The notes under the pieces were generated by a model, which was not told where the DNA came from, ran no database searches, and worked only from the letters and a program-made list of their open reading frames with translations. A stretch of 64,000 nucleotides of DNA from an uncultured virus (IMG/VR IMGVR_UViG_3300050188_000002) (lineage: Duplodnaviria > Heunggongvirae > Uroviricota > Caudoviricetes): the IMG/VR virus record IMGVR_UViG_3300050188_000002; one strand, written 5' to 3'. Position numbers and translations under genes: made by a program. How positions within the stretch are numbered: the stretch's first letter is position 1; every line of letters starts with the position of its first letter. Positions 3,504 through 47,284 of this stretch are shown here, in pieces.

Positions 3504-4118
3504 TTATTTATCGTACTTACTACGATCTAAGAACTGTTCCCAAGCAGGATTAAATTCCTTTACCAAAGCGTCATAATCAACATCAAAAGCGTGACCGTGA
3601 GGAATGCGTGGTTGCCATAGCAATTTCATACCAGACTGTTCGGGCGTTTTGTTTGCTTTTCTCTGATTACAAGAGAAACACGCACAGATTGTATTAACAA
3701 AAGATAACTTACCACCGGCTGACTTCGGATGAATGTGGTCTATATGGACCTCATCAGGAAATAGTCCAGCACCACAATATCCACAGCAATATCCATCACG
3801 CACCATCAAAGCTCGCCTACTAAACTTAGACTTACGCGTCTTTGTAGTGTCCTTGGACATACTGATAACAGTGTTTGGTAATGCAATCTTTCTATTAGGT
3901 GTCTTAATAAACTTGTAATCGGCAGGCGATAGGTTATGCCCATACGCGCACCAATCATCAAAGCCAACACGAGACATATCTGAATGGAGTACTTGGACAC
4001 GCTCAGTGTATAACTGCATTAGGGCTTCTACAGCGGTAATCATTTTGTAGGGCGTAAATGCTGCGTTAATGTATAAAACTGGTTCTTTTAATATGTTTCT
4101 CATAAATGAAAAGGCCAC
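3504..4118 (-). CDS. HNH endonuclease, McrA-like family often found beside tRNA arrays
   Basis: VLYINAAFTP N-terminus and RDGYCCGYCG...IDHIHPKSAGG...N.ICAC..CNQRKANKTP. Confidence 0.85.
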   Translation of the reverse strand: MAFSFMRNILKEPVLYINAAFTPYKMITAVEALMQLYTERVQVLHSDMSRVGFDDWCAYGHNLSPADYKFIKTPNRKIALPNTVISMSKDTTKTRKSKFSRRALMVRDGYCCGYCGAGLFPDEVHIDHIHPKSAGGKLSFVNTICACFSCNQRKANKTPEQSGMKLLWQPRIPHGHAFDVDYDALVKEFNPAWEQFLDRSKYDK

Positions 4119-4155
4119 CTTTCGATGGCCTATTATAACGGGACTAAAATAGGCG

Positions 4156-4482
4156 TCAATGTAATACTGTGTAATAAACTGCTGCGGATGCTATACCTGC
4201 CATACCTGTTGCCATTGCCATTCTAAGATCAACAGATCCTTTCTTAGTGTAAGCATCTAATACCTCTTTACCAAATCCAATTAGACCCGCAGCACCACCT
4301 GCAAATGCGGTAGCGTGATACATATTCACACCAACAAGGTTTAATCCAAAAGTAACAACTGTAGCAATTAGAATACCTGCTAAAGCGTGTAATACTAAAT
4401 GTTTGTGTACCTCAGACTTAATTGGAATAAGTTTGATAAGTGCTTCTTCAATTTTGTAATATGTTTCGATGAGTTTTTTCAT
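4156..4482 (-). CDS. Small multi-pass membrane protein
   Basis: Three hydrophobic segments, KE..D motif, SD and late-promoter motif upstream. Confidence 0.55.
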   Translation of the reverse strand: MKKLIETYYKIEEALIKLIPIKSEVHKHLVLHALAGILIATVVTFGLNLVGVNMYHATAFAGGAAGLIGFGKEVLDAYTKKGSVDLRMAMATGMAGIASAAVYYTVLH

Positions 4483-4519
4483 AGGAATCTCCTTATATAC
4501 TATTTATCCAAAAACCAAG

Positions 4520-4608
4520 CGGAAACGTAGGTGTTCGAAACCTATTGACCATTTAAGGTCTCGGTCTTAGCAGGACCGTGCGACACTCCGACTCTTCGCC
4601 GCGTTTCC
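4520..4608 (-). tRNA. tRNA-Ser(GCT)
   Basis: Cloverleaf with cggtc-CTGCTAA-gaccg and a long variable arm. Confidence 0.9.
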
Positions 4609-4613
4609 AAATA

Positions 4614-4687
4614 TGCTCGTGGTAGGACTTGAACCTACAACCTCAAGAGTGTAAAACTTGCTATCTAGCCAATTGATATACACGAGC
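4614..4687 (-). tRNA. tRNA-Val(TAC)
   Basis: gctcgtg/cacgagc acceptor, loop TTTACAC, U31-U39 mismatch. Confidence 0.8.
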
Positions 4688-4748
4688 GTTCGTGGGATTG
4701 ATTTCAGCTTGCTTAAGGCCCCTACCGTCTACCCACTCTGTACAGAAG

Positions 4749-4833
4749 TATCATCGGTGGGAGTCGAACCCACACATCCTTAATGGATATCAGATCCTAA
4801 GTCTGATGCGTCTGCCAGTTCCGCCACGATGAT
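4749..4833 (-). tRNA. tRNA-Leu(TAG)
   Basis: tcaga-CTTAGGA-tctga with a long variable arm. Confidence 0.92.
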
Positions 4834-4839
4834 ATGAAG

Positions 4840-4911
4840 CTGGGGATAATGGAGTTGAACCATTCTAGCGGGCTTCAAAGACCCGTGCCTATGCCGATCG
4901 GCCAATCCCCA
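4840..4911 (-). tRNA. tRNA-Gln(TTG)
   Basis: cgggt-CTTTGAA-gcccg with a U1-A72 pair. Confidence 0.88.
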
Positions 4912-4917
4912 AACAAG

Positions 4918-4988
4918 CGACTCTAACGGGAGTTAAACCCGTGCTTCCTAATAGACAGTCAGGAGTGCTATCGTAACACTTTAGAGCC
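4918..4988 (-). tRNA. tRNA-Asp(GTC)
   Basis: cctga-CTGTCTA-ttagg, G73. Confidence 0.82.
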
Positions 4989-4993
4989 AAATA

Positions 4994-5064
4994 TAGTTCC
5001 ACCTTGATTTGAACAAGGACCGTCTGAATCAGAATCAGAAATGCTACCGTTACACCATGGAACT
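4994..5064 (-). tRNA. tRNA-Gln(CTG)
   Basis: tctga-TTCTGAT-tcaga. Confidence 0.85.
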
Positions 5065-5069
5065 AACAA

Positions 5070-5140
5070 TTTCGGCGGACAGAATCGAACTGTCGGGGCA
5101 GAGTTTATAAGACTCTGGGGATACCAACATCCTCACCGAA
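5070..5140 (-). tRNA. Non-canonical tRNA-like gene with TAT anticodon
   Basis: 7-bp acceptor, 1-nt linker, ggat/atcc D stem, 6-bp anticodon stem cagagt-CTTATAA-actctg, normal T arm. Confidence 0.7.
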
Positions 5141-5145
5141 GTAAA

Positions 5146-5164
5146 GGGAGACCGACGGGATTCG
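5146..5164 (-). pseudogene. 3' fragment of a tRNA (T-loop half plus acceptor strand), possibly His
   Basis: CGAATCCCGTCGGTCTCCC ends abruptly at the T loop next to the endonuclease gene. Confidence 0.6.
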
Positions 5165-5187
5165 GAGAATCACAGATAAATAAGACT

Positions 5188-6162
5188 ATGTTTACTAAAG
5201 TCCAATTAAACAATCAAAGTATTGTCATAAGAAATATCAAAACAGTATATGAAACGGATAACACCATAATGACAAGTTCATTATACAAGAAAATATTTAA
5301 AGGTCAACGACATAACAAAACTGGGTTATACTGGAACGACTTACTATACTTAGCAATACCTGGTTATAAACAAAAGCGTAAAACTCCAGAGCCAGCAAAG
5401 TTAACTATTTGCTCAAACTGTAACAAAACTTTTTTTAAACAAGTTGCCAGATTGAATAAAACAAGAATGTCATTTTGTTCTAGTAATTGCGCAGCATCAT
5501 ATAATAATAAAAATAGGTCTAAAGAAGGATTTAAGGTTTCTAAATTAGAAAGATGGTTACAAAATAAGCTTATTTTGGAGTATCCTTGTTTGGATTTTCG
5601 TTTTAATAGTACTACTGATATAAACTACGAACTAGATATTTATATACCAAAATTGAATGTCGCATTTGAAATTAATGGTCCATTTCACTACATTCCGATA
5701 TATGGCACAGAAAAACTAGAACAAGTTAAGAGGAATGATGTAAACAAAATTAGGTTATGCAAGGAACGTAATATTGTGTTGTATATTGTAGATACTTCAG
5801 AACAAAGTAGATTCACAGAAAATTCCAGCGTTTCATATTGGAATTTTGTAAAACAAATGATAGACGAAGTTTATATAAGATCGGAATCCGAAGTTGTATT
5901 TGATATATCAATATATAACCATAAGAAGGAAGATAGAACATGTTGTTATTGTTCCTCACGTTTTCATTCAAGTAAAAATGATACCAAATTTTGTTCTTTT
6001 AGATGTCGCAACGAATCAAAAATGAAGGTTCAACCTAACCATTCAGATCTTTTACAATTTTCAACATCAGACGAAACTTGGACCAATGCAGCGAAACGAT
6101 GGAGGGTTTCTAGAAAAACCATCCATAAATGGCTGAAACTTAATAAAATACAGGTTGAATGA
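5188..6162 (+). mobile_element. Free-standing homing endonuclease-like gene (zinc fingers, PD-(D/E)XK/Vsr-like nuclease, HTH), antisense within the tRNA array
   Basis: CSNC..FCSSNC, ELDIYIPKLNVAFEINGPFHY and a C-terminal HTH; ATG 5188 follows GATAAATA. The ORF-track start at 5041 overlaps tRNAs. Confidence 0.8.
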
Positions 6163-6225
6163 TCGGTTACGATCCGACTCACATTCCGTCACAAGGAATT
6201 ATGCTACCATTACATCACATTCAAC
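6154..6225 (-). tRNA. tRNA-His(GTG)
   Basis: G-1 and C73, attcc-TTGTGAC-ggaat, divergent T loop ATCGTAA. Confidence 0.85.
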
Positions 6226-6239
6226 ATTCACCATCAAAG

Positions 6240-6311
6240 CCGCCTAGACAGAACTCGAATCTGTTTCCACTGCTTTTCAGACAGTTGCTCTACCATATGA
6301 GCTACTAGGCG
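6240..6311 (-). tRNA. tRNA-Phe(GAA)
   Basis: actgt-CTGAAAA-gcagt. Confidence 0.82.
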
Positions 6312-6320
6312 GTTATTAAA

Positions 6321-6392
6321 AGATCCTGAGAGGAATTTAACCTCTTTAAATCGGGGTTGCAATCCGATGCATAAACATTCTGCCACAGGACC
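6321..6392 (-). tRNA. tRNA-Cys(GCA)
   Basis: Loop TTGCAAC, U73. Confidence 0.82.
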
Positions 6393-6398
6393 AATAAG

Positions 6399-6470
6399 CA
6401 GGAGAAACAGGACTTGAACCCGTACAAAGAGTTTTGGAGGCTCTTGTGCTACCAATTACACCATTCTCCT
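6399..6470 (-). tRNA. tRNA-Trp(CCA)
   Basis: agagc-CTCCAAA-actct, G73. Confidence 0.88.
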
Positions 6471-6477
6471 AAAATCA

Positions 6478-6888
6478 TCAAAGGCTTCCTTGATGTAGTA
6501 TTTCGTTTTTGTTAGTTTTCCAATTTGTTTCTTGAGTCATTTCAAATCCATGACTGTAATACCCGTTGTGATGATTGAAAATATGAAGATACTTTTCCTT
6601 TTGTGGGCACTGTCTACGATCCACCAATTTGAATACCGCATGTCCACCTTCGCTATAACTTTCTCCTTGATAAAAGAAACTTACATCAAATTTCCATACA
6701 TCTTCATTTTCCAATATTTGATTTAAGTTTTCTCCTTCTTCTTTTATCACGAATGGAGATTCAGAAATATACCAGTCGGCGTGTTCGCAGCAACTTTGAC
6801 TAAGATCATATCCGACTATAGTATTATTTTTATCTATGAAGTTTACTTTATTTCGGAAACTTCCATTTTGTTCTGTGAATATTTTCAT
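6478..6888 (-). CDS. Hypothetical protein inside the tRNA array
   Basis: 136-aa ORF with AAGGA SD; QSCCE and HNGYYSH motifs. Confidence 0.65.
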   Translation of the reverse strand: MKIFTEQNGSFRNKVNFIDKNNTIVGYDLSQSCCEHADWYISESPFVIKEEGENLNQILENEDVWKFDVSFFYQGESYSEGGHAVFKLVDRRQCPQKEKYLHIFNHHNGYYSHGFEMTQETNWKTNKNEILHQGSL

Positions 6889-6908
6889 GTTTATTTCCTT
6901 TTTATAAG

Positions 6909-6981
6909 TGACTTCGGCGGGGATCGAACCCGCGACTTACTGATTAAAAGTCAGTTATTCTGCCAACTGAATTACGAAGTC
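6909..6981 (-). tRNA. tRNA-Lys(TTT)
   Basis: actga-CTTTTAA-tcagt. Confidence 0.93.
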
Positions 6982-6986
6982 ATAAA

Positions 6987-7059
6987 TGAAGCATACGAGA
7001 TTCGAACTCGTGATATCCAGTATGAAAAACTGGCGACTTAGCCGCTTGTCCAATGCTCC
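6987..7059 (-). tRNA. tRNA-Glu(TTC)
   Basis: ccagt-TTTTCAT-actgg. Confidence 0.88.
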
Positions 7060-7134
7060 TTTTCTACAATTTTACACTATGGATTGTAGAACTCCAACGT
7101 ACCAATCTATAACTTTCATTATAAAACTGTGCTA

Positions 7135-7207
7135 TGCAACTAGTAGGAATCGGACCTACGACCTATCACTTATCAAGCGATTGCTCTACCAACTGAGCTA
7201 TAGTTGC
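7135..7207 (-). tRNA. tRNA-Ile(GAT)
   Basis: atcgc-TTGATAA-gtgat. Confidence 0.88.
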
Positions 7208-7216
7208 GAACCCGAA

Positions 7217-7289
7217 TAATGCTGACAGGACTCGAACCTGTATAACACGATCTTCGTATGATCGGGCCCGCCAATTAGACCACAGCATC
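7217..7289 (-). tRNA. tRNA-Arg(ACG)
   Basis: cgatc-ATACGAA-gatcg. Confidence 0.8.
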
Positions 7290-7296
7290 ATAAACA

Positions 7297-7369
7297 TGGA
7301 ACCAATCGGGCTCGAACCGATCACCTATTGCTTGCAAAGCAATCGCTCTACCAGATGAGCTATGGCCCC
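7297..7369 (-). tRNA. tRNA-Ala(TGC)
   Basis: G3-U70 pair and TGC anticodon. Confidence 0.94.
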
Positions 7370-7373
7370 AAAA

Positions 7374-7468
7374 TAAAATTCATCTGACCTGACCCCAGAT
7401 AGTATCCCCACGTATAGCCGAAATAAACTGGTCATTTCGGATTTGCATTCAGCAGGATAGAAATTTTA
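7374..7468 (-). ncRNA. Candidate small structured RNA with a kissing-loop interaction
   Basis: Closing aaaattt/gaatttt; hairpins ccgaaat/atttcgg and atctgg/tcagat; loops carry complementary UGACC and GGUCA. Confidence 0.45.
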
Positions 7469-7470
7469 AA

Positions 7471-7556
7471 TCGGTCTGCTAGGATTCGAACCTAGTCGAG
7501 GCGCTAATCTGGCGCAAAGGGTATATAAATCCCTCTTGTCTCCAAGACTCAAACCG
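7471..7556 (-). tRNA. Second non-canonical tRNA-like gene with TAT anticodon and long variable arm
   Basis: cggtttg/cagaccg acceptor, 1-nt linker, gtct-tgg-agac D arm, loop TTTATAT, gcgc/gcgc variable arm, canonical T arm. Confidence 0.65.
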
Positions 7557-7778
7557 AAGGTGAAAGACTTTTACTTAAAGAGGCTTCTTATCTTTCCTCA
7601 TATGGTATAAAACTATAATTAAATGTGATATTCTATATTATTAAGTGTGTTATTTTTATCACAGAATTAACAATATAATATTCTATACCACACAAAGGAT
7701 TATTACATATGATTTTTATTGTTCTCATATATGTATTTATTTTAAATTAATGGGCTAGAGCCCAAAATAATGGACTAT

Positions 7779-8134
7779 TGGACCTGCGCGGAGTCGAACC
7801 GCGGTGTTCCAAAGCTTATCGAATCGTTTCTACACGCTTATCACTCTTGTATTTTAGTCACAATTAGAAGGTGAACACCTTGTGATATATTTCAGAATTA
7901 TTTTCTTACATTATCTGAGTATTGTAAGAGTTTTCAAATCATTTACTACGCGGCTTTATTTGATCAAGCAGCGAGACGATAGTTAGCCTTTGCCTTACGG
8001 AAAGAAGCTACACGACCGACGGAAACAGTTGAAGTTTCAGCATTTTAGGTTTACCAACTTATTTTAAGAGGAACGTTGATGACCTCTACGTGCAACTAAT
8101 CAACTTACTAGGGAGTCGAAACCAGTTCAGGCCC
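7779..8134 (-). ncRNA. ssrA: tmRNA with tag AETSTVSVGRVASFRKAKANYRLAA*
   Basis: 5' GGGCCTGA..TTCGAC and 3' GGTTCGACTCCGCGCAGGTCCA with a G3-U pair; tag frame 8041-7964 ends LAA*. Confidence 0.92.
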
Positions 8135-8156
8135 TATACCATCTTATTTGATGGAG

Positions 8157-8230
8157 CTCGCGGTCTTGGGATCGAACCAAGCAACAATTGATTAACAGTC
8201 AATGCCCTTCACCCTGCCGGGACACCGCGA
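8157..8230 (-). tRNA. tRNA-Asn(GTT)
   Basis: attga-CTGTTAA-tcaat, G73. Confidence 0.88.
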
Positions 8231-8330
8231 ATAAACGAGAGGTTTTAAAGGCACTCTCAACCTTAGGGCTAAGCTGAAATTTCTTTCGCCGCCTCCGCCA
8301 CTGTATTTTATAGTTATACAGAAACTATAG

Positions 8331-8404
8331 TAACGGGGGTAGGATTCGAACCTACGACCTCAGGGTTATGAGCCCTACGAGCTACCATACTGCTCCACCC
8401 CGCT
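8331..8404 (-). tRNA. Initiator-type tRNA-Met(CAT)
   Basis: Three consecutive G-C pairs in the anticodon stem (ggg-CTCATAA-ccc). Confidence 0.9.
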
Positions 8405-8790
8405 AACGATGGCTCTTCAATCGTTCATAAAAAGAACCTGGAACACTTTGCTCAGAACCTTATAAGACTTGGACTTTATCTAAAAGGCGTGTTCTTTGAC
8501 CGTTATGAGGCCCACTCATATTTGGGACGGTTACTCCTGTCTGCTCTTACCACTATGGCAGCAAGTGTGATGAATTTATTACTTTGTCCTATCTGTATCC
8601 CAACTTATATGGTGGGTTCTAATGCGTCATCAAACGCGTTTTATTCTCTGATACAACCTTGTACAATTATCAGAAGTGTTGTTTGAGGCTACCGTATGAC
8701 TAGTACGGCGGACAACTTTTCACAGAATCACAGTACTGTGCCACTGAATCCGAGTACTCCGTGGTCAGACGGTCTATAACATCGGATTAA
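8405..8790 (-). ncRNA. Candidate large structured ncRNA (~385 nt) within the tRNA array
   Basis: Dense hairpins and long-range helices with no convincing ORF. Confidence 0.55.
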
Positions 8791-8798
8791 CAATTCTA

Positions 8799-8870
8799 AG
8801 CCTCCAGTCGGATTCGAACCAACGGCCACTTGTTTACAAAACAAGAGCTCTACCACTGAGCTATGGAGGC
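8799..8870 (-). tRNA. tRNA-Thr(TGT)
   Basis: cttgt-TTTGTAA-acaag. Confidence 0.93.
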
Positions 8871-8924
8871 AAACCTAGTTTTATGTTTAAAGCATCTGGA
8901 CTAGAAAACCGGATGACAATGTGA

Positions 8925-9107
8925 TCACTTCTTATCTAATTTCTTATCAGAAGTGCCTACTTCTCGTTGCTTCTTAGTCTTCGTGAAAATACGAAGTTCC
9001 GCATCAGTCGCGCGTTTCCAATTACGGAAATTTAAAGCGACGATATGACGTTCCATTTCTGCTACTATACATTCTGCTTGTTGTTCTGGGGTTCTACGCA
9101 TTGCCAT
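8925..9107 (-). CDS. Small basic hypothetical protein inside the tRNA array
   Basis: 60 aa with AGGAG SD. Confidence 0.55.
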   Translation of the reverse strand: MAMRRTPEQQAECIVAEMERHIVALNFRNWKRATDAELRIFTKTKKQREVGTSDKKLDKK

Positions 9108-9154
9108 TTTGGTCTCCTGTTTATTAGTTTATGTTTTTTATTTAACTTTGCAAG

Positions 9155-9236
9155 CGGTACCGTAAAGAATCGAACTCTCATCCCATAGGGAGCGACTGAT
9201 TTCAAGTCAGTTTGTGCGCCATGCACCGACAGTACC
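9155..9236 (-). tRNA. tRNA-Ser(TGA)
   Basis: actga-CTTGAAA-tcagt, long variable arm, G73. Confidence 0.82.
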
Positions 9237-9420
9237 TAATTTTGTTTTTTTATTATTAAATATAGCACTACAAGTTTGTGTACAAAAAAGTTACCAGTAA
9301 TACTTTTTCTTACATCTGATATTTTTTAAGTATTTTGATACCACACTCTTTACAACATTCTTTAACACTATTACCAGAATCATAGAAATACTAGAATTCT
9401 TGTATAGTTACTATTCTCAT
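9237..9420 (-). pseudogene. Degenerate zinc-finger homing endonuclease remnant
   Basis: GATAAATA-N5-ATG, then an in-frame stop and a frameshift; CKECG and FFCTQTCSAIFNNK resemble FCSSNCAASYNNK of 5188-6162. Confidence 0.55.
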
Positions 9421-9464
9421 AGATTTATTTATCTATCTAGATCTAGAGTTTCGAACTAATAAAA

Positions 9465-9549
9465 TCAGGAAGACAGGATTTGAACCTGCAAGTTAATTAA
9501 AAACCGCCACCCAAAGACGGGCCGATACCAAGTTACGGGCTACTTCCTG
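9465..9549 (-). tRNA. tRNA-Pro(TGG) with an extended variable region
   Basis: ccgtc-TTTGGGT-ggcgg, C1-G72, 14-nt variable region. Confidence 0.82.
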
Positions 9550-9554
9550 TTAAA

Positions 9555-9626
9555 AGCGCCAAGAGAATTACGATATCTCAACCTGGAGTTTGGAAAACTC
9601 CCGCTCTTCCTTTGAGCTACTGGCGC
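9555..9626 (-). tRNA. tRNA-Gly(TCC)
   Basis: ggagt-TTTCCAA-actcc, U73. Confidence 0.85.
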
Positions 9627-9631
9627 ATAAG

Positions 9632-9712
9632 TGGGCTACCTAGGAATCGAACCTAGTATGGCAGAAGCCAACGGTTTTACAGACCGTCCTACACCCATTG
9701 TAGATGTAGCCC
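9632..9712 (-). tRNA. tRNA-Tyr(GTA)
   Basis: acggt-CTGTAAA-accgt with a variable arm. Confidence 0.9.
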
Positions 9713-9727
9713 AAGAAACATATTAAT

Positions 9728-9779
9728 TTGTCAAAGATCTGACCGAGATGCATTCTAACACCGTCTAACATTTTGTCAA
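9728..9779 (-). promoter_or_regulatory. Sigma70-type promoter plus boxA-like element for the tRNA array
   Basis: TTGACA-16-TAGAAT with extended TG, followed by ATCTTTGACAA. Confidence 0.7.
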
Positions 9780-9790
9780 ACACCGAAATT

Positions 9791-9845
9791 AAAAAAAGGA
9801 GTCTTTTTGGAGACTCCTCAGTATAACTTGAGTATATGAAGAGTC
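9791..9845 (-). terminator. Attenuator: intrinsic terminator overlapping an antiterminator
   Basis: Terminator GGAGTCT-CCAAAA-AGACTCC-T7; the alternative helix GACTCTTCA/TGAGGAGTC shares its 5' arm. Confidence 0.75.
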
Positions 9846-9846
9846 G

Positions 9847-9921
9847 TTATGCAATAACAGTTTCCCAGGCGCGATTATCACTTGGTTGTTTATGAAACGG
9901 ATTATAGCACGAGAGTGTCAT
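9847..9921 (-). CDS. Putative attenuator leader peptide MTLSCYNPFHKQPSDNRAWETVIA
   Basis: GATAAATA-N5-ATG; 19 different amino acids in 24 codons; stop codon abuts the antiterminator. Confidence 0.7.
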   Translation of the reverse strand: MTLSCYNPFHKQPSDNRAWETVIA

Positions 9922-9943
9922 ATAGATATTTATCCTAGAAATT

Positions 9944-10345
9944 TTATTCCTGCTCGGTTTTTCTTAGAAGTTCTAAAATGTCCACTATTTCATTTGAGAT
10001 GAACACCTCAAATTCCTGTAAGGAAGCAGTGGTGTCGATAATGTCTTTATCATAAGTAGTTTTGACATTGTATTCAATTCCACCTATGACTCTGTAGTAT
10101 ACATCACATCCAAAAACTGGCATGTTTGAATCTGTTTTATCATTCAAAACAAATAGCGTTTCATATGTATTTCGTATACCATCCACATTTAATGCTATGT
10201 TATTTCCAGTCATCGTTGGTTTAGATAAACCAAGACCTTCTGCAACTTTATCAATTACATGAAATATGCTATTGGTTAAAGAACTACCTTGATGTTCCAT
10301 CAGAAGTTTAACTTGTTTTTGTAGGTTGTAGTCATCGAAATACAT
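9944..10345 (-). CDS. Hypothetical protein, candidate internal head protein
   Basis: N-terminus MYFDDYNLQKQVKLLME is shared with the neighbouring gene and ends in L-x-E. Confidence 0.55.
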   Translation of the reverse strand: MYFDDYNLQKQVKLLMEHQGSSLTNSIFHVIDKVAEGLGLSKPTMTGNNIALNVDGIRNTYETLFVLNDKTDSNMPVFGCDVYYRVIGGIEYNVKTTYDKDIIDTTASLQEFEVFISNEIVDILELLRKTEQE

Positions 10346-10367
10346 ATGATCCTTTATTTAGAGTATA

Positions 10368-10757
10368 TTAATCCCTTACAATTTCATCTATAACGGAGTC
10401 TGAAAGTTTAGGAATTCCTAGATATTGTCCAAGATCGGCGTTTAATTCATTCAGTTCTTGTCGATTTTTATATAGGGTATCAGAGTAAACTGCTGCATCT
10501 TGGGTCTTAGAAACCTTTATGATTAGTTTTTCTGGGTCTATCGAGAGTTCGACGGCAACAAACTTACCATTTAATCTGACAATCCAAGCAGCGTGTCCTT
10601 CTCCAATATGTTTATAAAAACTTGGAGCATGTCCAATATAACGTTCAATAACACTGATAAAGTGTTTAGGATGAATATTTGGATCAATAGATTTATCATG
10701 GTCTTCACCTAGAAGAGATTGAACTTGGTTTTGTAGGTCGTATAAGTCAAAGTACAT
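10368..10757 (-). CDS. Hypothetical protein, candidate internal head protein
   Basis: N-terminus MYFDLYDLQNQVQSLLGE; AAGGA SD. Confidence 0.55.
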   Translation of the reverse strand: MYFDLYDLQNQVQSLLGEDHDKSIDPNIHPKHFISVIERYIGHAPSFYKHIGEGHAAWIVRLNGKFVAVELSIDPEKLIIKVSKTQDAAVYSDTLYKNRQELNELNADLGQYLGIPKLSDSVIDEIVRD

Positions 10758-11101: not shown

Positions 11102-11138
11102 ATAAGCCTCCAAAGGTACTTATCTGATAAATATGATT

Positions 11139-11333
11139 ATGAAAAGTCTTATCCAATTAATGCTTGAAATGCTCGAGGAAGATGGTCCCGTGACATCAAC
11201 CGGACCATCTGGTGTAGGAGCAGGCTTACAACCAAACGGAACCACAACCGGAAATAAAGGGGATGGAAGTGCTATTTCTGGTTACGATAAACGCTTAAGA
11301 TTCCGTAGGTTAAAAAAGAAACGCCGTAAATAA
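11139..11333 (+). CDS. Small late protein copying the capsid N-arm motif, with a basic tail
   Basis: GATAAATA-N5-ATG; GLQPNGTTTGNKGDGSAISGYD; RFRRLKKKRRK. Confidence 0.7.
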   Translation: MKSLIQLMLEMLEEDGPVTSTGPSGVGAGLQPNGTTTGNKGDGSAISGYDKRLRFRRLKKKRRK

Positions 11334-13072: not shown

Positions 13073-13499
13073 TCAAGACTCTAAGAATTTTTTAATTGTA
13101 GAGAATTGAGAAGCAAGGTACTCTGGATGTTTGAAATTTATGAATTGGGTGCATCTATCTCCATATCCCCTACCTGTTTTCTGGCTCTTTACAATATTGA
13201 CTGTTATAGAACCATCCTTTAACTTATTGTTTCTGTCAGGTGGAGTCTTGTAGACGTCCAATGAACACCTATTTTTATCGTTTTCTATTGTTATACTCAC
13301 CTTTTTAGTTTCTGCCCCAATTCCTGGGTCTAGGAGTACTTTTTGGTCTCCGGTTGGAGTATTCTGTACGTATNNNNNNNNNNAAGAAAGAATTTATTAC
13401 ATGAACTACTTTGTGGTAATCAGAAGCGAAAGATGCTAATTCATTCAAAAGATTTGAAAATTCTACACTTTCTGATAAAATTTCTTTGAAACTTTGCAT
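13073..13499 (-). CDS. Hypothetical protein, probably one gene across the N gap, candidate internal head protein
   Basis: GATAAATA-N5-ATG, then MQSFKEILSES, like a T4 capsid-targeting sequence. Confidence 0.45.
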
Positions 13500-13992
13500 A
13501 ACTATATTTATCATGGTACTAAACGACAAAAACCTAGAAGTAATCCTAGAACTGGTGATGAAATCCATTACATCTAAGATAAAGGATTACAAAACTCTGA
13601 TATATTTGTCAGAGGATTACGATACGTCAAGGTTTAAATCAAATACAAATTCGATGTTTCCATATGTTGAATATCAACAAGACGATATGATAGTGGCATC
13701 ATATGTATTATTCAAAGGGTATGTCAATTGTTGTGGTAGTGATTTTCGATATAAGTTAACAGTAACTATAAACTGCCCGAAAGATGAAGATCCTAGTCTA
13801 ATTTACATGGTTAGTAACTCTCAGATAGACTATATGGGATTGGTTGTTTGTGAGGAAATGTATCCCAAATATGGTAATCTGATGAAGTTTATAGAGCAGA
13901 TTGAGGCTACATTGGATTCGGTTGTAGAGATTGAATCTTGTAAGGAATCTGATACATTCCTACCTCCAACCGAATGGGATGCCGATAAATAA
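13486..13992 (+). CDS. Hypothetical protein (start uncertain)
   Basis: 168-aa ORF. Confidence 0.55.
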   Translation: MKLCITIFIMVLNDKNLEVILELVMKSITSKIKDYKTLIYLSEDYDTSRFKSNTNSMFPYVEYQQDDMIVASYVLFKGYVNCCGSDFRYKLTVTINCPKDEDPSLIYMVSNSQIDYMGLVVCEEMYPKYGNLMKFIEQIEATLDSVVEIESCKESDTFLPPTEWDADK

Positions 13993-13996
13993 TGGT

Positions 13997-14716
13997 ATGT
14001 CATCAGTTGTAATTCCAAACCCGCTTCCTCCATCAGAGCCACCATATAATGAACCTATCGGTTCAGATGCTAGGCAGAATCTAAACTATCTCCAGCCTAA
14101 TAACTATTATATGGCTTTTGGACACATGCCCGATTTCCCGCTTTGGTGTCAGGAAATTACCCTTCCTGGATTGAACGGACCAGAACCAGCAGTCCAACAT
14201 ACTCCAACAAGACATATAAAACATCCAGGACATGGAATTGCTATGCAGCGTTTGAGTGTTACTTTCAGTGTTGATGAAGACTTGGTGCAATGGGCTTTTC
14301 TATACAACTGGATTAACGCAATACATTTAGGCACAAGCATTTATGACCTGAGTACATACTTAGTAAAAGATCAGACAAGTGATGCTGGATATCAACGTCA
14401 CTTGAGAGTTCCATCTGATATGGGCGGTACAACAGATGCAACTCTGTTACTACTAACAAACAAGAAAAATGTCAATCTAAAGATAACGTTTGGTCGTTTG
14501 TTTCCAATCTCTGTTGGTGGTATTAAACTGGAAAGTACCAATACAACAGCTGACCATAGAATTGCCACCGTTGATTTTGAGTACAATAACATCAAATTCG
14601 AGCGCGTAGACCCTGCTTACGATCCTGTTTTACAAGATCCAAAGGTTAAGGAATGGCAAGAAGTTCAGCGTCGTATTTCTACTGGCCAACCAGTATTTCC
14701 TCCTTATCCAGTTTGA
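13997..14716 (+). CDS. Tail tube terminator / tail completion protein, gp3-like
   Basis: NYLQPNNY...CQEITLPG...LSVTFSVDEDL..W..LYNWI...FPISVGGI; start chosen from the GATAAATA-N5-ATG pattern. Confidence 0.8.
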   Translation: MSSVVIPNPLPPSEPPYNEPIGSDARQNLNYLQPNNYYMAFGHMPDFPLWCQEITLPGLNGPEPAVQHTPTRHIKHPGHGIAMQRLSVTFSVDEDLVQWAFLYNWINAIHLGTSIYDLSTYLVKDQTSDAGYQRHLRVPSDMGGTTDATLLLLTNKKNVNLKITFGRLFPISVGGIKLESTNTTADHRIATVDFEYNNIKFERVDPAYDPVLQDPKVKEWQEVQRRISTGQPVFPPYPV

Positions 14717-15179: not shown

Positions 15180-15210
15180 ATTTTCGAGAGTCATTTAGAC
15201 TCTCTTTCTT

Positions 15211-19288: not shown

Positions 19289-20095
19289 CTAGGCNNNNNN
19301 NNNNTGTAAACAAAGATGACTATTTTTCTCACGGAAATTGGTTACACCCTTACCGCGACTTATATCAGTTACATTGCCACTGTTATCTTTTGTTACAGTG
19401 GTTTTGTCATTGAATAGGTCAATATCAGAACCATCTGATTCTATCTCGATCTGAATATTATCAGAATTATAATCTCTAGAAATATCATTCATTAATGGGT
19501 CTGTAACGCCGTTATTAGCAGGATTACCATTATTTTGACCTGATTGTGTCAATGCCGCCATTCTCACATCTATTTCTGGAATGCCAGTATCGAAAATGTC
19601 ATGTTGATTTTTGTATTTTTCTAATTTTAGAGTGTATATAACCCTGTTTCCAAATTGCCAAAAAATGTCATCTTTGTTTACATATACAATTTCAAATAGC
19701 ATCCCGAACATTGGGATATAAACCAGAGACCCTTCGCGTGGATATTGTTCATTTGATGTATCATCCACCACACCATTTTTTTCTGCAACCTCTTGATAAA
19801 ATCTGCGTCTAGAAACGCATACTTGGCTTGCACTTAATGTCTCTAGCCCTAACTTAGAAATTAAGTCATTTTGGCCTTCCCACCCGCCAGAACTTTTAAG
19901 ATACATTTCAATACATATGGCTTTTTTAAACGCACTTGCTGCACTTTCTCCATATAAAGAATCTTCATTTAAAAGAGTTCTTGGTAGATAGTAGGTTTCG
20001 AACCCACCAATTTGGATAAACTCATCAACGAGATCTTGATGAAGATTCCATTCTCCTTCTCTTTCTGTGTTTTGGTGGAAAGCCTGATTAATCAT
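19289..20095 (-). CDS. Neck protein, gp14-like (3' end falls in the N gap)
   Basis: E.I..GG.ETYYLPR...DSLYGE..S.F...IEMY..GWEG..D..SKLG...PREG.LVY.P. Confidence 0.88.
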   Translation of the reverse strand: MINQAFHQNTEREGEWNLHQDLVDEFIQIGGFETYYLPRTLLNEDSLYGESAASAFKKAICIEMYLKSSGGWEGQNDLISKLGLETLSASQVCVSRRRFYQEVAEKNGVVDDTSNEQYPREGSLVYIPMFGMLFEIVYVNKDDIFWQFGNRVIYTLKLEKYKNQHDIFDTGIPEIDVRMAALTQSGQNNGNPANNGVTDPLMNDISRDYNSDNIQIEIESDGSDIDLFNDKTTVTKDNSGNVTDISRGKGVTNFREKNSHLCLXXXXA

Positions 20096-20096
20096 A

Positions 20097-20603
20097 TTAG
20101 ATAGTGTTCTTATTTTCGAATCCGACTTCTGCTATAAAATCCAATGATACTGAACCTAGAGGTGGAACCGTAACGTTTCTTGGTAGAGCGTCAAATCCGA
20201 TTATAAGACCAGCCTGATATAATACGTAATGAGTTAAAGTAACCGGCGATGCTGACGTGTTTTGTATATTAGGAATTGATACTTTGAAAAATCCTATAAC
20301 CCCTGCTAGATTATTACCGGTATTAGACCCGTATGTAGATATTTGGTTGTCGCCTGGAATGATGATAGGGTAATCTTGATATTCCGGTCTAGTTGACTCG
20401 TCTATTAATGGATTCAATGTGGTTGGGAAGAACTGGGCTGCGTTCCCGGTTAGAACACCAGAATGATCATTAAAGTCTGTTAGATGTGATTCCGTAGTAG
20501 CCACGCCAGACTGTGTATTAACCGTAGCCAATTTAACTTGTACGGTAGACTTCGCTAGACTCAGTATGGTCTGTTTTAAGAATTTTTTCTGTGCTTGTGC
20601 CAT
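20097..20603 (-). CDS. Hypothetical virion protein
   Basis: ORF with GATAAATA-N5-ATG at 20603. Confidence 0.55.
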   Translation of the reverse strand: MAQAQKKFLKQTILSLAKSTVQVKLATVNTQSGVATTESHLTDFNDHSGVLTGNAAQFFPTTLNPLIDESTRPEYQDYPIIIPGDNQISTYGSNTGNNLAGVIGFFKVSIPNIQNTSASPVTLTHYVLYQAGLIIGFDALPRNVTVPPLGSVSLDFIAEVGFENKNTI

Positions 20604-20642
20604 ATTCCTATTTATCGTATTCAAATCAGGATAATTACATAT

Positions 20643-21749: not shown

Positions 21750-21768
21750 AAATTAGATAAATATTACC

Positions 21769-24309
21769 ATGTTAACATACAATTCGGTATCAAAAGTACT
21801 TTTGAAGCAATATCATAACGTTTCTATAAATAGGGATGGTGTTCGATTGCCTGAATTGGTTGAATATATTGTTTCTAGAGGATTTATAAATAGAAAAGAA
21901 CTCACTCTAGACGTTTTACGTGAATCTGTTAAAAAGTTGCATCAGCATGGTCTCTTGGTGTTCGTTAACATCGATGGCGGTATGTTATTTGGGACTGGTA
22001 TATCAAAACCGATCAATGAAAATGCAAGTAGTTGGGAGATTGATGATATTTTCTGTGCATATCCAACATTTACAGACGGATATAACGTTGGATGTTCTTT
22101 AAGGACTTTATTTAAGAAATATGGAGTATGCCCAGATATATTCAAGAGTCCTAATACCGAGTGGCTTGCTGGATATGATGCTGGTTTTGTAGAAGGAACC
22201 GCATATAAGAATGATGCCCCAAACCCTATAGATAATACAAAGGAACTTGTGCCTGAATCTATTAAACCTGCTTTGAATTTCTATGGTATAACTGATTCTG
22301 ATCTTATTTCTGAAGAAATTAGTATTACCGATGAATCTGTAGTTATACTATCTGAAGGCCTCTTTGACACATTGAGTTCGGCCGGTAAATCGTTGACAAG
22401 ATTTGCGTTAAACTCTGATCAATTAAGTGATACTGGTAAAATAGCCAGATCATTTTTCAGTAGAGACATTGGTGCAGCCGTTCCTGCTGCCATAAAACAA
22501 GCCGCTTCAAAATGGGCTGAGCATAAGGGCGAATTGTTTGTGCCTTTGATTGCTTTATCGCCTGACCTACATAAAAACATTCAATCAAAATTGATCTCCG
22601 AGTCAAAGACGATAAAAGATGTGAAAAATATACCGTTACCTAAGAATGTTTATGGATCTACTGTATTTCTTACCGATCCTGTAGACCCATCATTAATGGT
22701 TTACCTTCCAATAGAAAAATTTGCTCCTATTTGTTTTGAGTTTATAGATGTAGACCGTATCAATGGGGAAGTTGAACCAGAAGATGTGACCAGCGATTTA
22801 GATATCGAAACTAGTGGGATAGGCGATTCCGGAGAAGAGGAAATTAATACTAAAAGTATCACAGCCGCAGAACTGAGACCACTATTAGACATGTCTTATG
22901 TCGAACAGTCCAAATACGTTAGTGATTATTTTGATACCACGTTTAAGCCGGAATCTACTATATTCAAATCTTTATCAGGAATTGAAAAGTTCTCATATCT
23001 ATATGATTTTAAAACAGATAATGACAATCCTAAGATATTCTCTAAATTCTATATGCCTGGTGCTAAAAAGGACGACGGTTCTAGAAGAATCACCAAATAT
23101 GAGGCAGACAATTTAAGAAGCCTTATAGGAAGAATCAATGTATTTACTGCGAGTTTCGATTCGTTGCTCAATCACGTTAATTCATTGAAGGAAGTCACTA
23201 AAAAGGACGATATCCCCGATGAATATAAGAAAAAAATTGTTTCTAAACTATATGATCTTGTAAGAGAAAAGATTTCTGATGTAGATGCTAACCTGTTCTC
23301 AGGAAAACTTGTAAAGCATATTGATGCTGCTATTGATATACTCAACTTCTTAAAAGCAGTAGAAACACCAAAGTCCAAAACAAAGCCAAACACTTGGACC
23401 TATGGGTTAGACCTATCTCAAATTGAAAATGAGATCAAAACAGTTGAAAGACTAAAAGAATTGATGACTACAGCTCCTATTGCTGAGTCTCTCATATTGG
23501 AAACTTCCGAAAAAGATGCTCATAAGTTTATAAAACATGAATATTATGCCGCGTTCGTGCCGCTTGTTACTTCGACTCCCCACAAGGAATCTCAGAGAAA
23601 GAAAGATAGAGATAAAGTAGATGTTAGAATCGTTATTTATGGTTTTATTTGGAAGAAGAGTATTAATTCCCCAACAAAAAACATAAACAGAACAGATGCA
23701 GCCTCCGAGCGTTACCTGATGTATAAATCACTTAGACTTGTGACCGGAGCCCCAATTCTATTTGGTTCATTGAAGAATAAAATTTCAGACATGGTCAAGT
23801 CAATTGATATCGGTAAATTCTTTGCTGTCGCACACTCATGGTTAAAAGGTCCAGCCAAACTCAACACCCAAAACGAAGGATATGTTGATACCGGATTTAT
23901 CACTATCGCTGAATTTGCCTCTAAATTTACCAATTACCTATCTTTCACAGAAATTAATAGATTTCATTACCAAATCGTTTATAAGTTCTCTCAAACTGAA
24001 TTGACTTTATCAATAAATTCAAATGAGAATACAGATAAAGTGAATAAGACTATAACTAGTCTAGACCTTCTATATAAGATTTATTCTAAGTTCTGGAAAG
24101 CGGCCGGTGTAAAGCTTGATATTATCCTGCGTAGCGATAAGAAAGAAGTGCCTATAAACATAGACTCCGCTAATAATAAGGATACGATTAAGAAAGCAGT
24201 TCAGTCATTATATGACCAGAATCGGCCAATCAAGCAGCCCACGCAATCACCTCAAACGCAACAGCAGCCCCCAACACAGACGCCACCAGCAGGCACGCCC
24301 AAGCCGTAA
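21769..24309 (+). CDS. Large hypothetical late protein, candidate processed head/ejected protein
   Basis: 846 aa, late promoter, several I/L-x-E sites, Q/P-rich tail. Confidence 0.6.
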   Translation: MLTYNSVSKVLLKQYHNVSINRDGVRLPELVEYIVSRGFINRKELTLDVLRESVKKLHQHGLLVFVNIDGGMLFGTGISKPINENASSWEIDDIFCAYPTFTDGYNVGCSLRTLFKKYGVCPDIFKSPNTEWLAGYDAGFVEGTAYKNDAPNPIDNTKELVPESIKPALNFYGITDSDLISEEISITDESVVILSEGLFDTLSSAGKSLTRFALNSDQLSDTGKIARSFFSRDIGAAVPAAIKQAASKWAEHKGELFVPLIALSPDLHKNIQSKLISESKTIKDVKNIPLPKNVYGSTVFLTDPVDPSLMVYLPIEKFAPICFEFIDVDRINGEVEPEDVTSDLDIETSGIGDSGEEEINTKSITAAELRPLLDMSYVEQSKYVSDYFDTTFKPESTIFKSLSGIEKFSYLYDFKTDNDNPKIFSKFYMPGAKKDDGSRRITKYEADNLRSLIGRINVFTASFDSLLNHVNSLKEVTKKDDIPDEYKKKIVSKLYDLVREKISDVDANLFSGKLVKHIDAAIDILNFLKAVETPKSKTKPNTWTYGLDLSQIENEIKTVERLKELMTTAPIAESLILETSEKDAHKFIKHEYYAAFVPLVTSTPHKESQRKKDRDKVDVRIVIYGFIWKKSINSPTKNINRTDAASERYLMYKSLRLVTGAPILFGSLKNKISDMVKSIDIGKFFAVAHSWLKGPAKLNTQNEGYVDTGFITIAEFASKFTNYLSFTEINRFHYQIVYKFSQTELTLSINSNENTDKVNKTITSLDLLYKIYSKFWKAAGVKLDIILRSDKKEVPINIDSANNKDTIKKAVQSLYDQNRPIKQPTQSPQTQQQPPTQTPPAGTPKP

Positions 24310-24486: not shown

Positions 24487-26538
24487 ATGATATCATATTA
24501 TCCGACTTCTGTCAAGCAACGCGTAACATCTCCTCTCATAGGGGATATGGTGCCTATGTTTGTCAAGGAGACATTTCCAAACTTCAGAAAATTCATAGAA
24601 GGTTATATTTCATGGAGTGAAGAAAATGGTAACCCAATGCATTTGCTTGGATTACTTAAAACAGCCAGAGATATAGACCTAACCGCCGATCAATTCGTTG
24701 TTCATTTGGCTAGGGAATTTGCTCCGTCTTTGGCTGAAAATCGGTTTTTATATGATTCTGAAAAAGCAACGTATAATGCCGCTGATTGGACATTTTTAAA
24801 GTACATTGGAGAGTATTACCGAGTAAAAGGTACTAGTAAGTCTTATGAGTATTTCTTTAGGTTGCTATATAATTTAGAAACCGAAGTAGTACACCCAAAA
24901 CACCACCTTTTTAGACCTTCTGATGGATATTGGGTAAATCCTTACAAATTTTTCATTGAAGTTCCTATAGGACAACTTGATTCTGATAGTTACACCAATT
25001 TATACATACCTGTTCAATACACTATTGATAACGGTAGTTCTTTTGTGTCTGTCGGAGTTGCGGATGTATTGCGTGTAGTAAATAGGTCAACAACCACTCT
25101 CACATTGGAATTTGAATTTGCTTCGTTTGATGATCAATTATTTTCAATTGGTGACCCAAACATCAAATTAAAGATTGATGATATTGACGTTGATTCCGCT
25201 CTTATTAATACTGATTTGACTCAGATTAAATCAATAATATCAACTAATACGTTATATGTCCCATTGAAAGTCCTCAATAAAATCAAGGTAATTAATGGCG
25301 GTTCAAATTGGCAGGTTGGAGAGAGAATCATTCTACAAGGAGATTCCCCAACAACTATTGAAGTTAACTCTATCAGTCAAGCAGTTGGAGGTAGCATATA
25401 CAATAAGCCAATATGCAAGTCTACTGGTATTAGTGATATATTTCTTAATGTTACATGTGTAACCGATGTGTCAAATAGCACACAATGGACAACAACTACG
25501 CCTTATTCAATTGGGGATTTAGTAATATATGATGGTAATTACTTCAAAGTAAACTCAAACATTATATCTTCTAGTCCACCAACTATAGATCCATCATATG
25601 ATCCTATTGATGTATTAATACCTACGATAAATGGCGTTACTGTATATAACGACGAATATTTCCTCTTAATAAACCAAGTACCGAATATTAATAGTGTTTC
25701 TAACGGGCTTTATCAGATTAAATATACAAACAATGGTAAATGTTTATTGAATAAGGTAGCAACCGTAGTTAACGATGTTGTATTTGATTCCACCAATAAA
25801 GTATATTATAGGTGTATCTCAAATCAAAATAACTTGGACTATGCTAATTCAAATCAGAACGTATTTAATGAATNNNNNNNNNNAGTTGGAGTTGGTGGTA
25901 AAATCTCGGGTATAACAATAATTGAATCTGGTTATTCATCTATTGATTATTCCCTAATCACTCCAATTAAATTAACTACTAATGGAATATTTGAAAATAT
26001 CACATATATAACCGGGGTTTTCTGTCGAGGTTTTGGTTATATGAAGGAACAGTGGTCTTCATCTTCCGATAAAAACATTGTACTAGAGGACAACTACTTT
26101 TACCAAAACCACTCATATGTAGTTGAAATAAAAGAACAATTTCCGGATGAATTTAATGTAGAAGAATACATAAAAACAAACCATCCTAGTGGGTTTCAAT
26201 ATTTCTTCTTAGAAACCCCATACTCTGGTTCTAAGATTAGAGACTATAACAGTTTATGTGCAACCGTCTGTGAAAGGATTTCTGAGAATGGAAGTGAGAC
26301 TTGTTCCCCCGACAACACACCAACAGTCATACCGTATCTTAATGATGAACTACAATTCGGTGTTGAACTGCCGCAGTACATAAAATACAGGACTGACATT
26401 GTATTTGAAGAAAATGTAAAGATAAATTCTTGGGTAACCCTAAGACAGTTCTCTATTTCTACTCAGGTCAACCAAAGTTCTAACGTATTGGTTGGAATTA
26501 ATTCTTGGATAACGCTTAGGGCATTCACCACCACATAA
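24487..26538 (+). CDS. Baseplate wedge protein, gp7-like
   Basis: P.FV.E.FP.F..F..Y, DID, Y..KGT..S..YFFRLLY and C-terminal DNYFYQNHSY..HPSG; contains an N gap. Confidence 0.7.
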   Translation: MISYYPTSVKQRVTSPLIGDMVPMFVKETFPNFRKFIEGYISWSEENGNPMHLLGLLKTARDIDLTADQFVVHLAREFAPSLAENRFLYDSEKATYNAADWTFLKYIGEYYRVKGTSKSYEYFFRLLYNLETEVVHPKHHLFRPSDGYWVNPYKFFIEVPIGQLDSDSYTNLYIPVQYTIDNGSSFVSVGVADVLRVVNRSTTTLTLEFEFASFDDQLFSIGDPNIKLKIDDIDVDSALINTDLTQIKSIISTNTLYVPLKVLNKIKVINGGSNWQVGERIILQGDSPTTIEVNSISQAVGGSIYNKPICKSTGISDIFLNVTCVTDVSNSTQWTTTTPYSIGDLVIYDGNYFKVNSNIISSSPPTIDPSYDPIDVLIPTINGVTVYNDEYFLLINQVPNINSVSNGLYQIKYTNNGKCLLNKVATVVNDVVFDSTNKVYYRCISNQNNLDYANSNQNVFNEXXXXVGVGGKISGITIIESGYSSIDYSLITPIKLTTNGIFENITYITGVFCRGFGYMKEQWSSSSDKNIVLEDNYFYQNHSYVVEIKEQFPDEFNVEEYIKTNHPSGFQYFFLETPYSGSKIRDYNSLCATVCERISENGSETCSPDNTPTVIPYLNDELQFGVELPQYIKYRTDIVFEENVKINSWVTLRQFSISTQVNQSSNVLVGINSWITLRAFTTT

Positions 26539-26546
26539 ATAACCAT

Positions 26547-33121: not shown

Positions 33122-33132
33122 TAAATATAACT

Positions 33133-47236: not shown

Positions 47237-47284
47237 AGATAAAACCCAAGGCTTAACCTTGGGTTTTCTTGTATAAATAGTAGT

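Follow-up and report, generated by a model that had tools for sequence, protein, structure and literature searches.

The region immediately upstream of the tRNA array of an uncultured phage appears to function as a ribosome-coupled transcription attenuator that acts on late transcripts entering the tRNA and tmRNA genes. We put the probability of this reading at roughly 55%. In silico support comes from the parts of the element, from their non-randomness, from two competing folds, and from the recurrence of the arrangement before other phage tRNA arrays. The transcription start, the translation of the short ORF, its coupling to transcription, and the response to slow decoding are what we infer. 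If the reading is true, this would be the first attenuator known on tRNA genes, and the first one built to report many amino acids. A literature search found no published attenuator acting on tRNA genes. The arrays themselves are reported to be connected with the supply of codons and with evasion of host defences that cleave tRNA (PMC11555353, PMC11464382).

The window, i.e. the whole stretch of DNA that was analysed, comprises 64,000 nucleotides of IMG/VR record IMGVR_UViG_3300050188_000002. As judged from sequence, the source genome is a distant T4-like phage. PHROG matches were obtained for sheath, tube, portal, protease, scaffold, two gp23-type capsid proteins and the clamp loader, and further for gp32-, gp41-, gp59- and gp61-like proteins, UvsY and NrdAB. 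The capsid protein shares about 41% identity with the nearest named phages; its closest relatives overall are 72% and 61% identical, and those in IMG/VR at most 44%. Leader DNA was carried by one sequencing run, a plant-metagenome DNA run that is probably its source, and no RNA run was listed. The elements of the locus are as follows.

10345..9944, minus strand: 133-aa orphan gene, late, 5' of the leader
9927..9934, minus strand: late-promoter box GATAAATA of the T4 type, with G at the first position
9847..9921, minus strand: 24-codon leader ORF including its stop (ATG at 9921, stop codon 9849..9847)
9833..9845, minus strand: predicted 5' strand of the antiterminator, beginning 1 nt past the leader stop codon (constrained folds and shuffle tests)
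9812..9825, minus strand: predicted 3' strand of the antiterminator, with 8 bases in common with the 5' arm of the terminator (constrained folds)
9791..9819, minus strand: intrinsic terminator with a 9-pair stem (9819..9796), a 6-nt loop and seven T to 9791
9752..9779, minus strand: sigma70-type promoter 3' of the terminator, 11 of 12 matches plus a TG extension
4614..9712, minus strand: tRNA array of 22 tRNAs for all 20 amino acids (ARAGORN and Rfam)
9712..9631, minus strand: tRNA-Tyr, the first gene of the array
9426..9433, minus strand: second late box, inside the array, followed by N5, ATG and a 9-codon ORF
8134..7776, minus strand: tmRNA within the array (Rfam, 91.5 bits)
7734..7740, minus strand: third site resembling a late box, within the array (ATAAATA, then N5 and the ATG of a 31-codon ORF)
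4917..4988: tRNA-Asp (Rfam, 46.6 bits; relaxed ARAGORN)

Every element listed in the initial annotation was found where it had been placed on the minus strand, and each detail was correct. This extends to the array for all 20 amino acids plus tmRNA (21 tRNAs were counted by ARAGORN, and the addition of tRNA-Asp gives 22) and to the separate sigma70 promoter 3' of the terminator (9779..9752).

The box in front of the leader had been read as a late promoter, and its distribution in the window bears this out. GATAAATA occurs 19 times compared with 5.7 expected, a count reached in none of 100 shuffles, and copies sit 5' of sheath, tube, portal, scaffold, capsid and baseplate genes. Under the geometry reported for T4, in which the late box spans -13 to -6 (PMC2988020), the A of the leader ATG would be position +1. 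The same layout is widespread in the window, where ATAAATA followed by exactly five nucleotides and ATG was found at 12 sites, versus 0.65 expected. Nine of the 12 sites head ORFs of 64-949 aa, including the genes for the tail sheath (47285), an 846-aa protein (21769) and a tail-tube-like protein (13997) and those starting at 33133 and 26547. The remaining three open ORFs of 24, 9 and 31 codons (9921, 9420 and 7728), all on the strand of the array. No ribosome-binding site was found at the nine genes, and one of them, the tail sheath gene, has a terminator just 5' of its start. Late messages with this layout are probably leaderless. We know of no leaderless late messages in T4 itself. Translation of the leader is credible because the layout also heads nine real genes, and the leader mRNA, judged by its start context, is probably leaderless and translated. 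The recurrence of the layout is equally compatible with a box-plus-ATG module from which the leader ORF arises as a by-product. A gene for gp55 or gp33 was not found in the 64-kb window. The nine gene-heading sites lie at 47272-47287, 21756-21771, 33121-33135, 26535-26549, 13984-13999, 20601-20616, 5175-5190, 11126-11141 and 13497-13512. An internal sigma70 promoter, suggested by an extended -10-like word in the leader ORF (9909..9901), was considered and rejected, as such words are not enriched (8 versus 5.7 expected).

Directly behind the leader ORF, the RNA can adopt two folds. A perfect nine-pair match with one G-U, beginning one nucleotide past the stop codon, had been noted by the initial annotation and is indeed present, with 9845..9837 pairing to 9820..9812 on the minus strand. 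The complete antiterminator has 13 pairs with one bulge and a calculated energy of -12.9 kcal/mol, against -12.7 kcal/mol for the terminator alone. When the full-length RNA was folded from the ATG, the minimum free energy was -29.1 for the terminator form versus -27.4 with the antiterminator forced. The nascent prefix, before the 3' arm of the terminator exists, was predicted to adopt the antiterminator. Folds with and without a masked ribosome footprint, as the annotation had proposed, separated the two states: with the footprint at the stop codon only the terminator could form, and with the footprint at codons 6-21 the antiterminator formed in the nascent chain. For a ribosome-free leader the predicted default is read-through, and termination would therefore need tight coupling. 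Attenuator geometry is thus real in silico, with short ORF, terminator, exclusive antiterminator, and selection of the fold by ribosome position on the ORF.

The alternative pairing was unlikely to arise by chance. Among 2000 dinucleotide shuffles of the 75 nt upstream, 0.1% matched the energy gain and 0.25% matched the duplex energy. It was also the largest alternative pairing among the 14 terminator-like hairpins in the window (-12.5 versus -8.4 kcal/mol for the next one). The leader stop codon ends 27 nt before the terminator stem. For lambda tR2, termination is reported to be maximal beyond about 30 bp from the stop codon (PMC4824070), and since the spacing found here is close to this value, a ribosome at the stop codon should mask the antiterminator strand and leave the terminator unblocked. 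When 24 nt of upstream RNA were added, the start-codon region paired with the bases just past the stop codon, which favoured the terminator (MFE -32.8, z = -3.0); the ORF part alone gave a fold z of -2.0. The hairpin with the next-strongest alternative pairing (-8.4 kcal/mol, matched by 1% of shuffles) is the terminator after the UvsY-like gene (15186-15204, plus strand). The leader terminator (loop at 9810-9805) has a trait in common with many of the switchable terminators near tRNA genes, among them those at the loci L223, L221, L286, L293, L203, L172, L305 and L317 of the survey described below: in place of the usual tetraloops, they have A-rich loops that end in three or four A.

From these elements the following sequence of events may be proposed. 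Late RNA polymerase would begin transcription at the AUG or immediately beside it, and the leaderless 5' end would be engaged by a ribosome. Under rapid decoding, this ribosome would be at the stop codon while the polymerase transcribes the terminator, and its footprint would cover the segment past the stop. With this segment covered, the 5' arm of the terminator would be free, the hairpin would form, and the T run would mark the end of the transcript. A delay of the ribosome at any of about codons 2-22 would let the segment past the stop codon pair with the 5' arm as soon as the latter emerges. This pairing would block the terminator, and transcription would run on into the tRNA genes. On this model the phage probably makes more tRNA transcript when ribosomes decode slowly. 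With 19 kinds of residue in the ORF, most of them present once, read-through could be set off by a lack of nearly any charged tRNA.

The residue content of the leader ORF is unusual. Its 24 codons specify 19 kinds of residue, with only Gly absent, none present more than twice and most present once, and Ser is drawn from two codon boxes. The initial annotation had held that 19 of 20 amino acids exceeded chance, and this stood with P about 2e-4 under three nulls. The probability of at least 19 kinds in 24 codons was 1.5e-4 at the base composition of the window (5.9e-4 with uniform residues), and 24-residue windows with 19 kinds made up 2 of 12,812 in the 28 long ORFs of the phage and 8 of 40,709 among stop-free six-frame windows. 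Among the window's 99 ATG ORFs with 22-26 codons, the leader ORF was also the most diverse. Its codon usage mixes common and rare codons without a pattern. Tandem or enriched cognate regulatory codons, by which attenuators are recognised, were not found in the leader ORF. The presence of each residue only once or twice counts against an attenuator by analogy, since classical attenuators use runs of regulatory codons.

A more far-reaching reading is that the near-complete residue set has been selected, so that the leader would serve as a general sensor of decoding speed, with the lead ribosome coming to a halt whenever nearly any host tRNA is depleted or cleaved. We regard this as plausible but less likely than not. 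The stall could be caused by starvation, by phage-induced demand or by an anticodon-nuclease defence; it would open the terminator and raise late transcription of the phage tRNA set and tmRNA. Should this hold, the tRNA genes would be under supply-and-demand feedback, and the leader would be one of a wider class of leader-ORF attenuators that guard arrays in uncultured phages. The idea of a pan-amino-acid sensor, put forward in the annotation, fared unevenly in the comparison with other loci, as coverage was high in several other leaders but ordinary in others. Pan-amino-acid diversity therefore looks real in a subset of candidate leaders, as far as their sequences tell, and is not class-defining.

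Any such control would be partial. The switch is bypassed by the sigma70 promoter after the terminator and by the late boxes at 9433 and 7740, and therefore only the late component that starts from 9934 or from the upstream late operon would be gated. The limiting role of the sigma70 promoter had been recognised in the initial annotation, and we agree with it; the two late boxes add to the bypass. Genes that depend uniquely on the switch at late times could be those for Tyr, Gly and Pro only. No terminator was found after the array-internal late box at 9433.

In order to see whether the arrangement recurs, tRNA arrays were taken from IMG/VR by T-loop patterns in two samples of 80-119 loci, and all counts given here are among the matches listed. 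Terminators with a stem of at least 7 pairs outside tRNAs were scored against 120 shuffles each, with a shuffle fraction of at most 0.035 as cut-off, and were considered tRNA-proximal if a tRNA followed within 400 nt, which in the second sample had to be on the same strand. In the first (discovery) sample, an alternative pairing was present at 10 of 19 tRNA-proximal versus 3 of 84 other terminators among the matches listed. The second, independent sample gave 7/17 versus 7/115 (Fisher P = 3.4e-4), and pooling of both gave 17/36 versus 10/199 (P = 9.6e-10), again among the matches listed. An ATG ORF of 20-60 codons that stops 15-35 nt before the stem accompanied 11 of these 17 with alternative pairing, compared with 34 of 218 other terminators (P = 2.1e-5, among the matches listed). 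About half of the terminators just 5' of phage tRNA genes in the two samples thus appear to carry an antiterminator, most of them with a short ORF whose stop lies some 25 nt ahead of the stem, which suggests that the leader studied here is not a one-off. In several of these, only 9-22 nt separate the terminator from the first tRNA, too short a stretch to hold a promoter.

The diversity of the ORF did not recur in the same way. The initial annotation had proposed a search for short, diverse ORFs 5' of other arrays; pairing and ORF placement were found again, but diversity was not general. Two unrelated leaders had high coverage, with 19 kinds in 32 codons at L286 (P = 0.007) and 18 in 25 at L203 (P = 0.0035), and about ten candidate leaders of other loci had diversity P values of 0.095-1.0. 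The small ORFs 5' of 59 other arrays showed no general surplus of diversity. Nor was there a class-wide surplus of diverse small ORFs upstream of arrays, as 4 of 83 ORFs at 60 arrays had P <= 0.05 and 4.2 were expected. The arrays of L211 and L286 are, like the one in the window, complete and accompanied by a tmRNA.

One group of leaders, which we call family A, could be followed across many loci. A search pattern made from the junction of terminator and first tRNA in L211 and L223 retrieved 34 metagenome loci, of which 30 extended far enough upstream to be usable and 23 were distinct. In all of them the same ATG is kept and the frame is open through the pairing segment, with ORFs in length classes of 30, 40-42, 43, 48 and 52-53 codons; the two alternative frames of these stretches contain 119 and 73 stops (26 ORFs). 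The 6-pair core of the antiterminator was paired in 132 of 132 cells. It has undergone two wobble changes and one compensatory AU-to-GC change, by which a codon is altered as well; 1 of 500 shuffles did as well as this. After the terminator, at a distance of 5-15 nt, come tRNA-Asn and a large array; in L211 the array serves 20 amino acids and a tmRNA is close by. The full fold includes a trp-like pairing of early codons with the antiterminator strand (z = -4.3). Covarying helices, for which the initial annotation had proposed a test in relatives, were thus represented by one compensatory pair in the analogous family A but by none for the leader itself, for which relatives were not found.

The long forms of family A contain all 20 amino acids in 40-53 residues (P 0.006-0.05 each). 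With the 20 residues at their start, which they share, taken as given, a random tail would supply the missing kinds with a P of 0.023-0.23 per lineage. The 30-codon forms have 14 to 18 kinds of residue. Within this 30-codon subfamily, there was no third-position bias (13, 14 and 12 variable sites by codon position), and the residue was altered at 19 of 22 variable codons. Freely changing residues fit a leader whose product is unimportant, as well as they would fit non-coding DNA.

No sequence relative of the leader in the window was found in any search. Comparison of 9400-10400 with phage records (megablast, blastn) returned nothing but a 73-nt tRNA match, and a search with the array (6100-9750) gave matches to single tRNAs only. 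The 133-aa protein encoded upstream had no relative in IMG/VR or in a set of 5.8 billion proteins. The exact terminator pattern had 0 matches in IMG/VR, nhmmer gave no further match for the leader, and the leader peptide had no detectable relative among 23,529 small ORFs of the loci collected. With an HMM of family A, the ORF of the window was absent from the best 25 of these 23,529 small ORFs. A search for the capsid family in five related records matched nothing there or in controls, a negative that says little, as the records are 8-33% complete. The leader is therefore without covariation in its own helices, and is treated here, on sequence grounds, as an analogue and not as a member of family A. 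Homology to two other leaders was considered and rejected. For L203, 23% of shuffles reached the local DNA score; for L286, 2% of 1000 shuffles did so and BLASTP gave E = 0.008 in a single comparison, which is not significant given about 36 candidates. A block pattern common to the leader and L286 matched only the contig of L286 itself in IMG/VR.

The most immediate alternative accepts the two-state switch as real, but takes it to be blind to amino-acid or tRNA supply and the residue make-up of the ORF to be incidental. The switch might then sort transcripts by origin or timing, treating late leaderless transcripts differently from upstream read-through, or its state might depend on a protein or a small RNA. 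Such an explanation sits well with the enrichment of the alternative pairing at tRNA-proximal terminators with or without a diverse ORF, with the ordinary residue diversity of many candidate leaders, and with the altered fold in the presence of 24 nt of upstream RNA, by which transcripts of other origin could fold differently. Even so, we consider it unlikely. It fails to explain why, in 11 of 17 cases, the end of an ORF falls 15-35 nt ahead of the stem, why the frame is conserved in five length classes, and why the leader has a diversity of P about 2e-4. Moreover, the leader matches no known RNA family or protein-binding motif.

A more mundane explanation, which we judge rather improbable, sees only an ordinary operon-end terminator followed by an early promoter, similar to the PeSL cassettes of T4-type phages, with the short ORF as a by-product and the pairing as a coincidence. 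The terminator does lie 125 nt past the stop codon of the upstream late gene and 17 nt before the sigma70 promoter, and PeSLs are described as composite promoter-terminator motifs (PMC2839356, PMC4122927). The ORFs behind the two other late boxes of the array, moreover, are 9 and 31 codons long, as chance alone would produce. However, a pairing of P about 0.001 and a diversity of P about 2e-4 are unlikely to coincide in one 130-nt spacer, the three-part layout is also enriched before tRNA genes elsewhere, and the cassette is absent among the best 20 of 47 direct-repeat families in the 64-kb window. It is also conceivable, with still lower probability, that the late box, the gene-like context of the ATG and the strong terminator form a complete, stand-alone late unit of about 130 nt, whose product, either a 24-residue peptide or a small RNA of this length, would have its own function. 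Shuffled versions of the region fold less well, with z values as given above for the extended RNA and the ORF part. Against a functional peptide stand the lack of detectable relatives among the 23,529 small ORFs and the free residue changes in the leader peptides of family A, and a stand-alone unit would leave both the mutually exclusive hairpins and the link to tRNA genes unexplained.

The ribosome-coupled attenuator that we prefer belongs to a known class of mechanism; its target, its sensor logic and its phage setting are new. Leader-peptide attenuators control the amino-acid operons trp, his, leu, thr, pheA and ilv in enterobacteria. The leader shares with them, and with the general model of leader-peptide attenuation as far as outlined in PMC1183508, a leader ORF, an intrinsic terminator and an exclusive antiterminator set by ribosome position. 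It differs in its target, which would be phage tRNA and tmRNA genes instead of biosynthetic enzymes, and in its codons, as nearly every amino acid is present once and a run of one regulatory codon is lacking. It is also probably leaderless, with a T4-type late box, and its untranslated state is predicted to read through.

Other systems resemble the leader in part. T-box riboswitches also tie a choice between terminator and antiterminator to tRNA charging, but they bind one uncharged tRNA directly and need no ribosome. Neither a T-box nor another Rfam family was found in the leader by a gathering-threshold scan of the window, and an E-value scan of 9700..10000 gave no T-box. The toiL ORF upstream of topAI-yjhQ in E. 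coli acts by Rho-dependent termination and responds to antibiotics, whereas the leader would use an intrinsic terminator with an antiterminator hairpin and have tRNA genes as its target. Common to both is a short ORF that reports general translation stress, as toiL is described in PMC12121999. Likewise, in the mycobacterial polycysteine attenuators, as described in a preprint (bioRxiv 10.1101/834739), a leaderless short ORF at the 5' end attenuates downstream genes; these are Cys-rich ORFs of a bacterium that act on cysteine-related operons. The PeSLs are similar to the leader in that a stem-loop terminator (ending at 9791) directly precedes an early sigma70-type promoter (from 9779) in a T4-like genome. 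In the PeSL descriptions available from PMC2839356 and PMC4122927, however, the motifs are repeated and linked to gene shuffling, whereas the cassette of the window was not among the best 20 of 47 repeat families, and a leader ORF or antiterminator is not part of those descriptions.

Several further features of the window were recorded. Relaxed ARAGORN alone indicated two extra tRNA-like genes on the minus strand, one of 86 nt that resembles tRNA-Ile(tat) and has a canonical T arm (7471-7556) and one for tRNA-Leu(aag) (4519-4595). Three genes encode HNH/homing endonucleases (5188-6162, plus strand; 3504-4118, minus strand; 46730-47236, plus strand). One of them lies inside the tRNA array on the opposite strand and starts with a late box, N5 and ATG; the longer form of its ORF overlaps tRNA-Ile. 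At L203, an endonuclease-like gene is likewise located between the leader and the next tRNA. Also encoded within the array (6478-6888, minus strand) is a 136-aa protein of phrog_10011, a small but widespread phage family with 91 relatives and invariant CCE and NGYY-H-GF motifs. Its relatives elsewhere have no link to tRNA arrays, as an array of at least 8 tRNAs was present at 3 of 80 loci.

Tandem repeats of 24 nt occupy positions 1-109, 5' of a baseplate-wedge-like gene. Six masked runs of ten N are present (2223-2232, 13374-13383, 19295-19304, 25874-25883, 56301-56310 and 62547-62556), one of which interrupts a 64-aa ORF at 13305-13499. At 4112-4159 on the minus strand, a terminator hairpin directly adjoins a sigma70-type promoter that has 11 of 12 matches, so that the predicted start of the promoter lies inside the hairpin; this site would be a compact overlap of terminator and promoter.
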